64,000 bases of DNA from an uncultured Gemmatimonadales bacterium (GCA_963730185.1 CAVSQW010000008.1:448001-512000), one strand, 5' to 3'; shown: positions 15,295 to 21,617, counted from the first letter of the stretch. Program-made: numbers and translations. Notes: a model not told the origin generated them from the letters alone.

Positions 15295-16502
15295 ATGACG
15301 CCCAGCTCGCGGCCGATCCGCCCCACCGTCTCGAGGCAATAGTCGATCTGGTCCGCCGTGTGGGTGGCCATGACGCTGGTTCGAAGCCGGCACTGGGAGG
15401 GCGCCACCGCCGGCGGGACCACCGGGTTGGTGAACACCCCGGCGTCGAAGACCTTCCGCCACATGACCAGCGTCTTGTCGAGCGGACCGATCAGGATCGG
15501 AACGATCGGCGTCTCGGACGGTCCGGTCTCGAAGCCCAGGTTCCGGAATCCTTCGGCCAGCCGGCGGGTATTGACCCAGAGCTGCTTCGCGCCGCTCGGG
15601 CTCGGTCTGGATCACTTCGACCGCCGCGAGCACCCCGGCCGTGTTGGCCGGGTGGCAGGGCGGCGGTAAAGATCAGGGGACGACTGTGGTGGCGGAGGTA
15701 GTTGATCACCTGGCGCGACGCCGCGACGAAGCCGCCGATCGAGGCCAGCGACTTGGAGAACGTGCCGGCGACGATGTCGACCTCGTCGGTCAGTCCGAAG
15801 TGAGCGGCGGTGCCGTCGCCGTTCGGACCGAGGACGCCGATCGAGTGCGCGTCGTCGACCGCGAGGGCGGCGCCGTAGCGGCGGCAGACCTTGAGCAGGC
15901 CGGGCAGGTCGGCGATGTCGCCTTCCATGGAATACACGCCGTCGACGATGACCATCCGGCCGCCCGGCTCGGCGCACTGGGCGAGCTTCCGCTCCAGCCC
16001 GGCGAGGTCACCGTGATTGAACCGGACGGTGTTCCCATAGCTCATCTTGGCGCCGTCGACGATCGAGGCGTGGTCGAGCTTGTCGAGGAACACGACATCG
16101 CCCTTGGACACCAGGCCGGAGATCAGACCCAGATTGGCGTTGTAGCCGGTCGAGAAGACGATGCAGTCCTCCTTGCCGAGGAACGCGGGCGAGCGCCTCT
16201 TCGAGCTGGAGGTGCAGGTCGAGGGTGCCGTTCAGGAACCGGCTCCCAGTGCAGCCCGAGCCGTAGATGTGCAGGGCCCGGGTCGCGGCCTCGAGGACCT
16301 TGGGGTGGTGGGTCAGGCCGAGGTAGTTGTTCGACCCCAGCATGATCCGCTTCTGTCCTTCGATCACCACCACCGTATCTTCGGACTCGGAGATCGGCTT
16401 GAAATAGGGGTAGAGCCCCTGCGCCTTGACCTCGTCGGCCCGGGTGTACCTGCGGCACTTCTCGAACAACGAGATGTCGGTATTGATCGTCGGCGTCGAC
16501 AC
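15291..16502 (-). CDS. spt: Serine palmitoyltransferase (alpha-oxoamine synthase family), interrupted by three +1 indels
   Basis: [39 protein letters not shown] and PLP-lysine GTFSKSL. Removing one base each at about 16188, 15651 and 15586 restores a roughly 400-aa protein ending GRELGVI*. Confidence 0.8.
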
Positions 16503-16727: not shown

Positions 16728-19028
16728 ATGCAGCGACAGCTTCTGATCCTGGGGTTGACCATCCTGGCTGGCCTTGCAGGGCCCTTGGTCCCGGCGGCGC
16801 GGGCCCAGACGGTCCAGCCAGGGCGGTTCGAGGTCCCGGGGCTCGACTGGGGGCCGAACGCGGCTTGGCGCCGGCAGGCACGGCAGGTCAGGGCCACCCG
16901 ACAGGCCATGCTCAAGGCCGGACGATTCGGTCTGCTCAACGCCCCGCCCCTGTTCGCCCTCGCGGCACCCGGGGGGGCGAACGGCACCGCGGTGACGGGG
17001 GTCTTCAACGTCCCGGTCATTCCTTTCGCGTACTCCGACGTCCCCGCGCCCTATAGCAAGCAGGAGTTCCAGGACGTCCTCTTCCAGACAGCACCGCCGT
17101 ATGGTCGCCCCTACACGCTCAAGACGTACTACGAGGAGCTGTCGCACGGACTGATCCAGATGTTCGGCACGGTGTTCGATCCGGTGCGGACCGACAGCAC
17201 GGCCGAGTATTACCAGCAGAACTGCAACGGGCTCAACCTGCCGGGTCGGACGGCCTGTCCCGACAACGGCAAGCGCTTCGGCAACATGCTGATCGCCGCC
17301 CTGGATTCGATCACCAATCGGCCCGGCGGCGACACGGTCTGGGCTGAGTTCGACAACGACGGCCCCGACCACCAACCGAACTCGGGTGACGACGACGGGG
17401 TCGTCGACTTCGTGACTTTTCTGCAGCCGACGGTCGACGGCGCTTGTGGCACCCCAGGCATTTGGGCCCATCGGTGGGTGATCTCGGTCTGGAACGGCGG
17501 GTCGCCGTACGTGACCAAGACTCCTTGGGCGGGGCACCCGGGACAGTTCATCAAGGTGGAGAACTACACCATCCAGAGCGAGGTCGGTGGAGCGAGCGGC
17601 TGCGACCACCCTCAGGGAATGACGGCTCCGATCATGCCGATCGGCACCATCGCTCACGAGACCGGCCACGCCTTCGGCCTCCCCGACCTCTACGACACCC
17701 AGACCGGCACCGAGGGGATCGGAGAGTGGGGAATCATGGGAAGCGGCAACTACGCCAAGGCATTCAGCCCAGCCCAGTACGATCCCTGGTCGATGAGCCA
17801 GCTGGGATGGATCACCGTGGCGCCGCTGACCCAGACCTCGGTGATCACCACCGGGCCGCGCCAGCTGACCGACACGGTGTTCATGGCGCAGAGCCCCAGC
17901 CCTGACGAGTACGTCCTGATCGAGAACCGGCAGGCAGTCCACTCCGACTCGGCGATGTTCGATCCCAACAACACGGCGTCGCCGACCGGGACGCCCCCCT
18001 GCAAGTCCAAGTGCCGGAAGGTGCCGGGACTCCTGATCTGGCACATCGACGACGGCCGGATCCTCCAGGGGCAGGGGTCCAACACCATCAACACCGGTCC
18101 GATCCAAGGGGTCGAGGTGGAACAGGCCGACGGCCTCAACAATCTGCGGAGCACGAGCTCCACGACCCGGAACCGGGGCGATGCCGGGGATACGTGGCCC
18201 GGCGACTCGAGCCGGGTGGTGTACGGGTTCCGCACCAACCCCGCCGCCAAGACCCACTACAGTGAGTACGACGGCTTCGTGATCGATCAGATCGCGGACC
18301 TGGGCGGCGGGGTGATGCGGTTCCGTTACCTCCAGCGGGGCCTGACCGTGGTGCGATCGAACACGCTGGGCGCCCTGATTCGCTTCGACGGGGCGCCCTG
18401 GGCCACGTACTCGGACGCCCTGCCGGAGGGAACGGCGTTTACGGTCGGGGTCGACAGCGTTCAGGAGACGGTGCCGGGTGTGAGCCGAGCCGCGTTCCTG
18501 AACTGGAGCAACGGCGGGCCGCGGGAGCAGGCGCTCACCAGCGGGCCGGTCCCCGACACCCTGGTGGCGAGCTTCGCGGTCGAGCATCGCCTCAAGGTGA
18601 CGGAAACGGGTGGCGGGCTCGGGACGGTGACGGCCAGCGTCAACGGCGACTTCGGGGCCGGGGTGTTCCTCCCGGCGGGGACGCCGGTTACCCTCACGGC
18701 CGCGCCGAGCGGGAGCGACGTCTTCGCGGGCTGGCGGGGCGACACGACGTCGATCGCGACCGAGATCACCTTGCCCATGAACCGGGCCTACACGCTCGAG
18801 GCGTCGTTCGTCGCCTTCGTGGACGTCACCTTGTCCGACGCCACCGACGACATCCTCGGCACCCCCAAGCTCTCGGCGGCGCAGAAGACCTTCCTCGACG
18901 GGCTGGGGAATCGGAACGGATCGTACGACGTCGGCGACTATCTGGCCCTCCTCAAGCGGAACGGGCAGGCGGTCCCGGAGGCCGTGGTGCGGGCACTGAA
19001 GGCGGCCCCGGCCGGAAAGGGCCAGTGA
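16728..19028 (+). CDS. Secreted M6-family (immune inhibitor A-like) metalloprotease with C-terminal beta-sandwich repeats and a dockerin-like tail
   Basis: Signal peptide; HETGHAFGLPDLYD zinc motif; WGIMGSG Met-turn; EYVLIENRQ; GLLIWHID. Confidence 0.88.
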   Translation: MQRQLLILGLTILAGLAGPLVPAARAQTVQPGRFEVPGLDWGPNAAWRRQARQVRATRQAMLKAGRFGLLNAPPLFALAAPGGANGTAVTGVFNVPVIPFAYSDVPAPYSKQEFQDVLFQTAPPYGRPYTLKTYYEELSHGLIQMFGTVFDPVRTDSTAEYYQQNCNGLNLPGRTACPDNGKRFGNMLIAALDSITNRPGGDTVWAEFDNDGPDHQPNSGDDDGVVDFVTFLQPTVDGACGTPGIWAHRWVISVWNGGSPYVTKTPWAGHPGQFIKVENYTIQSEVGGASGCDHPQGMTAPIMPIGTIAHETGHAFGLPDLYDTQTGTEGIGEWGIMGSGNYAKAFSPAQYDPWSMSQLGWITVAPLTQTSVITTGPRQLTDTVFMAQSPSPDEYVLIENRQAVHSDSAMFDPNNTASPTGTPPCKSKCRKVPGLLIWHIDDGRILQGQGSNTINTGPIQGVEVEQADGLNNLRSTSSTTRNRGDAGDTWPGDSSRVVYGFRTNPAAKTHYSEYDGFVIDQIADLGGGVMRFRYLQRGLTVVRSNTLGALIRFDGAPWATYSDALPEGTAFTVGVDSVQETVPGVSRAAFLNWSNGGPREQALTSGPVPDTLVASFAVEHRLKVTETGGGLGTVTASVNGDFGAGVFLPAGTPVTLTAAPSGSDVFAGWRGDTTSIATEITLPMNRAYTLEASFVAFVDVTLSDATDDILGTPKLSAAQKTFLDGLGNRNGSYDVGDYLALLKRNGQAVPEAVVRALKAAPAGKGQ

Positions 19029-19029
19029 G

Positions 19030-19419
19030 ATGATGCGCCGACTGCTCTTGGTGGCCGCCGCGGTCGGGCTTGCCGCCTGCGGAAACAAGTCCATGCCGGT
19101 CGAGCCGGTGGCGGGCGATCTGACGCTGGCCTTTTCGTCGCCGGTGGGGAACGACGGCGCCCTGCTGCTGCTCGTCTCCGGTGGACCGGTGACCACGGTC
19201 ACGGCCCTCAACGGCTATCAGGTGGCCTCGGCACCGGCGGGCACCAACCTGACTCGGATCGTGGTTACTGGCAATCTGGTGGCCGGCGACGTGGTCAAGA
19301 TCGCGATTCCCGACACGTCGGCGTCGGCAGCCTACTCGGCCCGGGTGGAAGCGGCCGCCAACCGGAACACCTTCGCCCTGTCGGATCCCCTGTCGTACAC
19401 CGCCGGTCTCCGGAAGTAG
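19030..19419 (+). CDS. Small beta-rich lipoprotein of unknown function
   Basis: Lipobox LAAC; about 105-aa mature domain of alternating hydrophobic strands; starts 1 bp after the protease stop. Confidence 0.75.
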
Positions 19420-19436: not shown

Positions 19437-21617
19437 ATGGAGCGGCGCGAGTTTCTCAAGGTGAGCGCGGCCACCGGGGCCGCCCTGACGCTGGCGGTGT
19501 CGCTCGACGGCTGCGGTGCCGAGGCTCTGCCGGCGGGCCCCGCCGGGAGCTTCGCCCCCAATGCCTGGATCCGGATCGACGACCAGGGCACGGTGACCGT
19601 GATGGTCGACCGGGCGGAGATGGGGCAGGGGGTGAGCACGGCCCTCCCGATGCTCGTGGCCGAGGAGCTCGACGCGGACTGGGAGCGGGTGCGGTTCGAG
19701 GCGGCCCCGGCCAACGAGGCCTACTACAACCCGCTGCTCAAGGCGCAGATCACCGGTGGGAGCACCTCGATCCTGGCGGCCTGGACGCCGCTCCGGCGGG
19801 CCGGGGCCGCGGCTCGCGCCATGCTCCTGTCGGCCGCGGCGCTGGAGTGGGGGGTGGAGGTCGCCGCCTGCCGGACCGAGGCCGGCGAGGTGGTCCACGA
19901 GGCCTCCGGGCGGCGGGCGGGGTATGGAGCCTTGGTCCCGCGGGCCGCCACCCTCGCGGTGCCGGACCAGGTTGCCCTCAAGCCCCGAACGGCCTATCGC
20001 CTGATCGGCACTCCGGTGCCCCGACTGGACGTTCCGGACAAAGTCACCGGTCGGGCCCGTTTCGGGGCCGATGCCGGGCCGGCCGGGGTGTTGGTTGCGG
20101 TGGTGGCGCGATGCCCCGTCTTCGGGGGCAAGGTCGTCCGCTACGACGGGGCTCGGGCGCTGGCGGTCCCCGGCGTCAAGCAGGTGGTGCCGATCGACAG
20201 CGGCGTGGCGGTGGTGGCCGAGCACACCTGGGCCGCCCTGGAAGGGCGGAAGGCCCTCGAGGTGACCTGGAACGAGGGACCGGACGCGACCATCGACGAT
20301 GCCGCCATCCGGGCCGAGCTCGAGGCCCTCACGGGCGAGGCCGGCGCGTCGGCTCGGCGCCTCGGAGATCCTGGCGGCGTCAACCCGCCCACCCGGATCG
20401 AGGCGGTCTACGAGGTTCCCTACTTGGCGCATGCCACGATGGAGCCGATGAACTGTACCGCCGATGTGAGCTCGGACGGCGTCACCCTGTGGGTGCCGAC
20501 CCAGTTCCAGGCCGGGCCGAGCTACTTCGCGGGGGGTGGGGCGCGGGGCGTGGCGGCGAGCGTGGCCGGCGTCGGGACCGACCGGGTGACGGTGCACACG
20601 ACGATGCTGGGCGGTGGGTTCGGCCGGCGGAGCGAGCTCGACATGGTGGGCGAGGCGGTGGCCGTGTCGAAGGCCGTCGGGGCGCCGGTGCGGCTGCAGT
20701 GGACCCGTGAGGACGACACCCGTCACGACCGGTATCGCCCGGCGGCCCGACATGTGATGACCGGCGGGCTCGCGGCCGACGGCACCCCGGTCCTCTGGCA
20801 GCACCACATCGCGTGTCAGTCGATCATCCGGAAGTTCATGCCCGGGTTTCTGCCTCGCTGGGCCACCCGGATCGCCGGGCCGCTCAAGGGCGGGGTGGAC
20901 GCGAACGCGATCGAGGGCGCGGCGGACCTGCCCTATGCGATTCCGAACCTGGACGTCCGGTACTCGGAGGCGACGCTGCCGATTCCGGTGGGGTTCTGGC
21001 GCTCGGTGGGGCACAGCCACACGGCCTTCGCGGTGGAGAGTTTCATCGACGAGATGGCCCACTCCGGCGGCAAGGACCCGGTGGAGTTCCGACGGTGGCT
21101 GCTTCGAGTGGCACCCCGCCACCTCGCGGTGCTCGACCTGGCGGCCGAGCGGGCGGGATGGGGCACGGAGCCGCCGAAGGGACGGTTCCGCGGCGTGGCC
21201 GTGCACGAGTCGTTCGGGAGCTTCGTCGCGCAGGTGGCCGAGGTCTCGGTGGAGCAGGGGACGATCCGGGTGCACCGGGTGACCTGCGCGATCGACTGCG
21301 GGGTGGTGGTGAACCCCGACATCGTCAAGGCCCAGATGGAGGGTGGCATCGCCTATGGCCTCTCGGCGGCCCTGCACGGCGGCGTCACGATCGAGAAGGG
21401 CCGGGTCCGGCAGGGGAACTTCAACGACTACCGGGTCCTCCGGATCGACGAGATGCCGGTCGTCGACGTACACTTGGTGCCGAGCGACCAGCCACCGGGC
21501 GGCGCCGGCGAGCCCGGCACCCCGCCGATCGCCCCCGCCGTGGCCAACGCGGTCTTCGCGGCGACCGGGACCCGCCTGCGGTCGCTCCCGTTGGTGATAG
21601 GGAGTAGGGAATCGTGA
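19437..21617 (+). CDS. Xanthine-dehydrogenase-family molybdopterin-binding subunit (isoquinoline 1-oxidoreductase beta type)
   Basis: Tat signal [45 protein letters not shown] and GAGEPGTPP motifs. Confidence 0.9.

Follow-up and report, generated by a model that had tools for sequence, protein, structure and literature searches.

A one-loop, dockerin-like tail on secreted proteins of Gemmatimonadota and its likely partner, a lipoprotein of predicted cohesin fold

The stretch of DNA analysed here (the window, 64,000 nucleotides), from an uncultured Gemmatimonadales bacterium (GCA_963730185.1 CAVSQW010000008.1:448001-512000), encodes a secreted M6-family zinc metalloprotease with a dockerin-like C-terminal tail and, directly behind it, a small lipoprotein. 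We take the tail to be, most likely, a dockerin reduced to one loop, which would bind the domain of predicted cohesin fold in the adjoining lipoprotein. In Gemmatimonadota the tail and the lipoprotein co-occur almost perfectly, the pair is present in about half of the genomes sampled, and the lipoprotein accompanies the tail across unrelated secreted proteins (hereafter, cargo) and altered gene orders. We consider it probable that the tail docks on the lipoprotein in one orientation only, with calcium in its one loop, and so tethers its cargo to a membrane one-to-one. This confidence comes from the two fold assignments and the linkage of the two genes, not from the score of the modelled complex.

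A first-pass annotation of the window had described the end of the protease as resembling a dockerin that lacks its first calcium loop. The peptide it quoted is present, as residues 702-744 of the 766-residue open reading frame (ORF); the protease does not end at LLKR, as had been written, and 22 further residues follow, including a fourth predicted helix. The predicted structure of the tail (predicted local distance difference test, pLDDT, 89) has four helices, with the loop between helices 2 and 3. In a wide structural search of 48,161 chains, dockerins took ranks 1-4 and 9 of the top 12, and the best of them was 2ccl_B (Z 4.3, root-mean-square deviation (rmsd) 3.1 over 51 residues). HHalign comparison with 22 Pfam-type dockerins of the same phylum aligned 41 columns to the second half of the dockerin (P=4.7e-4, probability 33%). 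The top structural rows and the match to the second repeat lend support to the dockerin likeness claimed for the tail. Dockerin_1 clusters also made up 23 of the 30 named matches of the tail in the Atlas, with low shared-feature counts. Each of these lines of evidence is weak, and they agree with one another.

The canonical dockerin loop has 12 residues, with D1, N3, D5, G6 and D12. The tail loop follows the consensus D-x-x-G-N-x-N-G-x-[YF]-D-x-G-D, in which two residues are inserted after the first Asp; the DxNxDG spacing first ascribed to it is thus incorrect, as the gap in the HHalign alignment also shows, and the inserted form was found in 0 of the 22 control dockerins. Among 180 pairs of tail and lipoprotein, the loop residues are 91-100% conserved overall (D724 and N728 100%, G727 and G736 99%, D737 98%). 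Because of this conservation, and because the tail profile finds 1,383 clusters (50% identity) at E<=0.001, the loop is not a chance resemblance. A first loop 12-50 residues upstream was seen in 0 of 174 motif-bearing tails at the loci and in 0 of 123 library matches, and two strict loops were seen in 13 of the 22 control dockerins; this supports the annotated lack of a first loop. The loop lies at most 60 residues from the C-terminus in 137 of the 150 library matches listed, further away in 3, and 10 lack the strict motif. The tail is a C-terminal domain on secreted proteins, as type I dockerins are. With one loop, an inserted spacing and no profile match, it lies outside the Pfam Dockerin_1 family.

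At four loci (L051, L313, L315 and L317) the lipoprotein gene is directly upstream of an M6 cargo gene and the tail stops just past helix 3, which makes helix 4 dispensable. Two entries look like assembly or frameshift artefacts: P0016, in which the tail end is partly duplicated, and P0043, in which the tail runs into an out-of-frame lipoprotein. CSLinker was considered as the identity of the tail and rejected; it matched 3 of 49 members, at E 0.04, and the family belongs to an algal protein.

Cohesins have nine strands and about 140 residues. The lipoprotein model is an eight-stranded beta-sandwich with one short helix, spanning about residues 24-129 (pLDDT 91 overall, 97-98 from residue 31). 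When it was searched against the same 48,161 chains, ranks 1-16 were all cohesins (Z 9.6-7.0, with about 100 residues aligned), and the first non-cohesin appeared at Z 6.8. The best rows were 2w1n (Z 9.6, rmsd 2.7 over 99), 2vo8 (Z 9.5) and 2xdh (Z 8.4). The top three Foldseek rows were likewise cohesins (probability 0.99-1.00), and the proposal that the lipoprotein is cohesin-like is borne out at the level of predicted fold: its domain is predicted to be a cohesin-type beta-sandwich. The first cohesin strand is probably absent, because most solved cohesins align with the model only from about their residue 14-23 onward. The lipoprotein lies outside the Pfam Cohesin family, having no profile match and eight strands in about 105 residues. 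NCBIfam matched neither the tail nor the lipoprotein domain, and in the window's own genome the Pfam Cohesin search gave no match and a six-frame PF00404 search did not report the tail locus at E<=1. The lipobox Cys is kept in 95% of the aligned rows, with 4% gaps.

A tail query and an independently built lipoprotein profile each matched 45 of 61 relatives, 44 of them in common. Among 251 genomes of the phylum scanned at E<=1e-5, with a lipoprotein profile built partly from genes adjoining tails, 123 had both, 7 only the tail, 1 only the lipoprotein and 120 neither. All five tail-only genomes that were successfully inspected carry a more divergent lipoprotein beside the cargo gene; the remaining two, G147 and G135, lay outside that inspection. 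For 190 copies of the tail in the fetched loci, the lipoprotein is found at most 900 bases downstream in 157 (131 of them with a 4-base overlap of stop and start) and is fused in 23; 3 copies sit at contig ends, and 7 have no lipoprotein downstream. Of the 180 pairs, 31 were retrieved with a query that also spanned the cohesin part. The seven copies with no lipoprotein downstream comprise four with the lipoprotein upstream (directly or at 7-10 kb), two truncated or frameshifted fusions, and one (L229) for which no partner was found. All 80 loci kept, from 229 in the named species collection, have Gemmatimonadota titles. Diverse secreted proteins carry the tail, with a lipoprotein homologue adjoining and mostly downstream, as the first-pass annotation had anticipated.

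The distant upstream position is seen in genus g36 (L114, L116, L321 and L322), where the tail is found on S8 proteases and related proteins with BACON-like stalks and the gene for the lipoprotein stands some 7-10 kb upstream, in the same orientation.

It is the tail, and not the protease, that the lipoprotein tracks. Domain scans of 57 longer proteins, from the 150 library matches listed, recognised 26 M6 peptidases, 3 S8 peptidases and 5 proteins with PPC domains, as well as Vps10, DUF11, HYDIN-like immunoglobulin (Ig), He_PIG and fn3/Calx-beta domains, and cargo in the fetched loci adds BACON stalks and LRR and PKD arrays. NHL propellers also occur among the cargo. Cargo sizes of 1,000-8,000 residues occur, and these proteins look extracellular. 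Many cargoes are non-catalytic and adhesin-like, so 'enzyme display', as the system was first called, is too narrow a name. The lipoprotein was found in 34 of 35 genomes with a tail but no M6 match, and in 0 of 21 genomes that match M6 and lack the tail. In family f6 it was found in 7 of 16 genomes, and no M6 was found there.

These counts bear on the idea that the lipoprotein specifically inhibits the protease encoded beside it, as potempins do in Tannerella forsythia (PMC9890683). The lipoprotein has the size and the gene logic of potempins, and the cargo recognised most often among the 57 proteins scanned is M6 and S8 peptidases. However, some of the cargo that it is paired with lacks a recognised peptidase domain (Vps10, PPC/NHL, Calx-beta/LRR), it was not found where M6 occurs without the tail and present in f6 genomes where M6 was not found, and its model matches cohesin sandwiches, whereas the available text describes potempins as beta-barrels (PMC9890683). 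We regard an inhibitor as highly improbable.

A model of the tail in complex with the lipoprotein scored 0.59, against 0.01 for the best of three controls; the runs agreed on at least 98% of contacts, and the partner pLDDT was at least 71. The interface proposed at first pass thus stands out from the controls, but only as a weak pass: 116 of 157 solved pairs and 2 of 215 mismatched pairs also attain the mark, and those that attain it with a score of 0.60 or below are only 18 of the 157 and both mismatches. Of the three outcomes that the first-pass annotation named as refuting its proposal, none clearly came about: a predicted fold likeness and co-occurrence are seen, and the modelled interface is weakly supported.

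Several results weigh against docking of the tail on the lipoprotein. Beyond the weak pass itself, the complex score may be driven by likeness to solved cohesin-dockerin complexes. For the tail, Z 4.3 is low, with the first unrelated row at 3.4, less than 1 away; Foldseek ranks a dockerin second, at a non-significant E of 0.96 (rmsd 2.1 over 44); the top Atlas match is an unrelated family; and Pfam Dockerin_1 (PF00404), at its curated cut-off, matched neither the window protein nor any of 49 aligned tails. For the lipoprotein, the Foldseek E values of 0.055-0.071 are not significant; the nearest named Atlas cluster is a cohesin at a score of only 0.77, which makes it only a lead; its profile, compared by HHalign with 20 Pfam-type cohesins from the phylum, showed no likeness in sequence (P=0.4); and Pfam Cohesin (PF00963), at its curated cut-off, matched neither the window lipoprotein nor any of 53 aligned members. 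Searches of PDB sequences with either domain gave nothing below E 0.03 and matched no dockerin or cohesin. Mean-field direct coupling analysis (DCA) of 177 pairs (effective number of sequences, Neff, 139) gave the top inter-protein pair, K743-F115, a z of 6.1, against at most 5.1 in eight shuffles, and a nearest-neighbour swap control also reached 6.1. Related genomes are non-independent samples, and own-genome searches found no route across the outer membrane.

The low Z of the tail, the non-significant Foldseek values, the missing cohesin sequence signal, the weak complex score and the swap control equal to the top DCA pair would all suit co-transcription without binding, in which the tail is an EF-hand-type calcium-binding cap and the lipoprotein a generic beta-sandwich with a role of its own. 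We hold this to be quite improbable. Two separately predicted models match the two halves of one known complex, cohesin and dockerin, and without binding it is unexplained why two unrelated small domains should each do so, why the lipoprotein tracks the tail over unrelated cargo and changed gene orders, and why the two are fused in some genomes.

If, as we favour, the tail docks on the lipoprotein, the coupled genes would yield both proteins in similar amounts, each exported by its own signal peptide, and the lipoprotein would receive its lipid at Cys17 and probably end up in the outer membrane; export and lipidation would follow from the signal peptides and lipobox in the sequence together with established pathways. 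Ca2+ in the single loop would order helix 3, and helix 3 would dock on the cohesin sheet. Only one docking orientation is expected, because the symmetric first repeat is missing from the tail. The protease or adhesin would then project from the membrane on its Ig-like spacer. The gene pair and its tight coupling, the varied cargo on a constant tail, the lipobox and the fusion in one clade are observed, the two folds and the weakly supported interface are predicted, and the docking, its calcium dependence and the membrane face are inferred.

The E. coli lipoprotein sorting rule, which has not been validated for this phylum, reads the residue after the lipobox Cys. Among 154 separate-gene copies it is Gly or Ser 123 times and Asp 5 times, and a LolA homologue is present, suggesting that the lipoprotein resides in the outer membrane. 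The hosts are diderm and the anchor could face the periplasm; the outer face of the outer membrane is somewhat more likely, because the cargoes are adhesin-like and stalked.

In the own genome, which is 82% complete, the C-terminal domain of the type IX secretion system (T9SS; PF18962) and PorV (PF19572) were unmatched, and there is one secretin, which we take to be PilQ from its AMIN-type N-terminus and its place beside aroC. A T2SSK match in the same genome was set aside as a ComEA-like gene by sequence. A single secretin is also found in 4 of 5 other genomes checked. Such a restricted repertoire would fit a lipoprotein that is an escort and not the final anchor: the complex would form in the periplasm, the cargo would be taken to or across the outer membrane by the lipoprotein route, and it would then perhaps be released. 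One partner gene per cargo, coupled translation, the LolA homologue and large cargoes that look extracellular agree with an escort. Cohesin-dockerin pairs, however, are tight and lasting bonds, and a secretion system may have been missed, since the genome is incomplete and a SprA search gave no signal even in control genomes. We consider an escort unlikely.

In genomes of families f6 and f7, cargo, tail and cohesin-like domain form one ORF, as in L219, titled Candidatus Palauibacter. The 23 distinct fused copies and one frameshifted copy constitute a single clade (support 0.999, midpoint root). A hydrophobic segment and a lipobox Cys are kept between tail and cohesin in 23 of 23 fusions (19 placed by pattern, 4 read by eye), an Arg-rich stretch precedes the hydrophobic segment, and a pair of Cys follows helix 3 in 19 of the 23. 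An internal translation start was rejected as the explanation of the fusions; some copies have one, and no ATG, GTG or TTG ahead of the hydrophobic segment is conserved among 15 copies. Most fusions have a second, weakly hydrophobic stretch, which could make a membrane hairpin and leave both domains outside. The hairpin leaves the topology of the fusions unexplained, because L128, L130 and L132 lack that stretch. One genome with 10 matches, G326, has open frames of 8,681 and 7,440 residues with the fused tail-lipobox-cohesin module (G326:C1:2242284-2243018 and 2267515-2268249).

Separate and fused forms together allow a more speculative picture, which we put forward as a doubtful extension of the tethering proposal. 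A half-dockerin tag on any secreted protein would be captured in a 'tag and socket' system by a dedicated cohesin lipoprotein, which anchors the cargo and may carry it to the surface without a type II secretion system (T2SS) or a T9SS. In one clade the cargo, dockerin, Arg-rich loop, internal lipoprotein signal and cohesin would have merged into one polyprotein. Cleavage at the lipobox inside the chain would then let one gene yield a giant adhesin and its own lipid anchor.

Table 1. Features of the protease and lipoprotein genes, in window coordinates (aa, amino acid residues)
Feature	Position	Strand	Basis
Secreted M6-family zinc metalloprotease (cargo gene), 766 aa	16728..19028	+	ORF; signal peptide ~aa 1-26 read from sequence
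M6 catalytic region, aa 102-410	17031..17957	+	TIGR03296 E 7.3e-37
HExxH zinc motif, aa 310-314	17655-17669	+	motif position
Spacer domain: divergent InlB B-repeat (Flg_new_2), aa 624-695, immediately N-terminal of tail	18597..18812	+	Pfam PF18998 E 8.4e-6
Dockerin-like tail, aa 697-760: four helices, the second in the linker, and a single calcium-type loop between helices 2 and 3	18816..19007	+	model pLDDT 89, fold searches, HHalign, conservation
Single calcium-type loop, D724-D737	18897..18938	+	conservation in 180 pairs
Lipoprotein gene, 129 aa; signal peptide aa 1-16; lipobox Cys17 at 19078-19080	19030..19419	+	ORF; lipobox
Predicted cohesin-fold domain, aa 24-129, with 8 predicted strands; solved cohesins are longer	19099..19416	+	model pLDDT 91; Foldseek; VIA-align Z 9.6 to 2w1n

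The features of the locus are listed in Table 1. Pfam Peptidase_M6 also matches the 766-residue ORF (E 8e-21). The ORF coordinates agree with the first reading that the lipoprotein gene begins 1 bp past the protease stop: the TGA occupies 19026-19028, one base intervenes, and the lipoprotein ATG is at 19030. The own genome holds one copy of each gene (tblastn), and the whole protease used as a query gave no matches in the genome collection. A promoter and terminator scan at the locus stayed at chance level.

A gene for a molybdopterin-binding oxidoreductase subunit (Pfam MoCoBD_1, MoCoBD_2; window 19437-21617, + strand) starts 17 bases past the lipoprotein stop, and a similar gene start lies downstream of the pair in some loci of the same genus, such as L015. 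It looks like a local neighbour outside the module. On the other side, at 15491-16502 on the - strand, one gene is apparently split over two frames (ORFs 16008-16502 and 15491-16111), possibly by an assembly frameshift. We take it to be a pyridoxal phosphate-dependent acyltransferase-like gene, of the aminooxononanoate synthase or serine palmitoyltransferase type, and it heads a run with an epimerase-like and a PAP2-like membrane gene.

Recognisable cohesins and dockerins also occur in the phylum. In family f10, from another class, Pfam-type dockerin matches number from 14 to at least 24 per genome and cohesin matches 1-15, some of the cohesins in tandem; this holds for 11 of 11 genomes sampled (G061, G064, G067, G069, G072, G074, G077, G079, G081, G082 and G084; L234-L265 in part). 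The lipoprotein family was found in 0 of these 11 genomes, and their sequences make f10 a candidate for a large cohesin-dockerin network. In the window's own order, clusters of Pfam-type dockerin and cohesin genes are seen at G090:C1:457000-461800 (L253, L272), G171:C6, G038:C1, G094:C292 and G236:C14, and the half-dockerin pair is also present in G090, G171, G038 and G094. These clusters are a possible source of the divergent pair.

If the tethering reading is true, two large families that lack annotation, present in roughly half the genomes sampled from an abundant and little-studied phylum, would gain a function, and cohesin-dockerin pairs that Pfam does not see would be a general membrane tether in diderm bacteria. 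A one-loop dockerin and a cohesin of about 105 residues would form a natural minimal pair, probably of single orientation, which would offer a direct test of the purpose of the duplicated dockerin repeat and might supply small orthogonal docking tags. The fused form would be a clean test of whether a lipoprotein signal in the middle of a polypeptide is processed.

We read the system as a variant of cohesin-dockerin tethering that belongs to neither Pfam family, and it is undescribed in the literature searched. Full-text searches, whose scope excluded supplements and most subscription journals, found no description of a half-dockerin and cohesin-lipoprotein pair, which agrees with the earlier impression that the pair is new in this lineage; the main texts of PMC11557425 and PMC13463774 do not contain 'Gemmatimonad' or 'lipoprotein'.

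Type I pairs with a single-cohesin anchor (the OlpA/OlpC complexes of C. thermocellum, PDB 3UL4 and 4DH2; also 1OHZ and 2CCL) resemble the present pair in the predicted folds of both partners, in the C-terminal dockerin on a secreted enzyme and in having one cohesin per anchor protein. The present pair differs in having a single calcium loop, lengthened by two residues, where those dockerins have two, in its shorter, eight-stranded cohesin, whose alignment to most solved cohesins starts at about their residue 14-23, and in its diderm host, with one partner gene per cargo and no multi-cohesin scaffold seen. Tandem copies of the cohesin domain were seen at no locus, and at least one longer homologue (1,428 residues) was among 8,000 candidates scored. 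Proteins of the OlpA/OlpC type anchor by binding to the cell wall, whereas the anchor here is a lipid. The best matches of the lipoprotein are the non-cellulosomal cohesins of Clostridium perfringens glycoside hydrolases (2W1N, 2VO8, 2JH2) and of Archaeoglobus fulgidus (2XDH), which are likewise used outside cellulose breakdown. The C. perfringens cohesins are modules in large enzymes, according to the entry titles, whereas here the cohesin is the whole lipoprotein, and identity is only 9-15%.

A two-gene cohesin-dockerin system, as suggested at first pass, has a precedent in clcC/clcD of Cellulosilyticum lentocellum, a characterised operon whose products form a 1:1 complex (PMC13487519, in the part available). 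There, too, one cohesin gene stands beside one dockerin-enzyme gene; the available text describes a cohesin with a cellulose-binding module that targets the substrate, and a canonical dockerin, whereas here a lipoprotein cohesin and a halved dockerin serve varied cargo. In diderm bacteria, cohesin-dockerin attachment of peptidases has been hypothesised for the 'Planctosome' of freshwater Planctomycetes (PMC6461901) and for a complex of Ca. Stygibacter (PMC8542988). As far as the accessible portions of those papers go, the domains of these systems are recognisable, several enzymes share a large multi-domain scaffold, and neither a lipoprotein cohesin nor a half dockerin is mentioned. The pairs of KLIKK peptidases and potempins in Tannerella forsythia are alike in placing a small outer-membrane lipoprotein gene, for a product of 98-132 residues, beside each secreted peptidase gene (PMC9890683, in part). 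Potempins, by the same partial text, are beta-barrel inhibitors of the active site and specific to their peptidases, whereas here one lipoprotein family serves unrelated cargo sharing only the tail.

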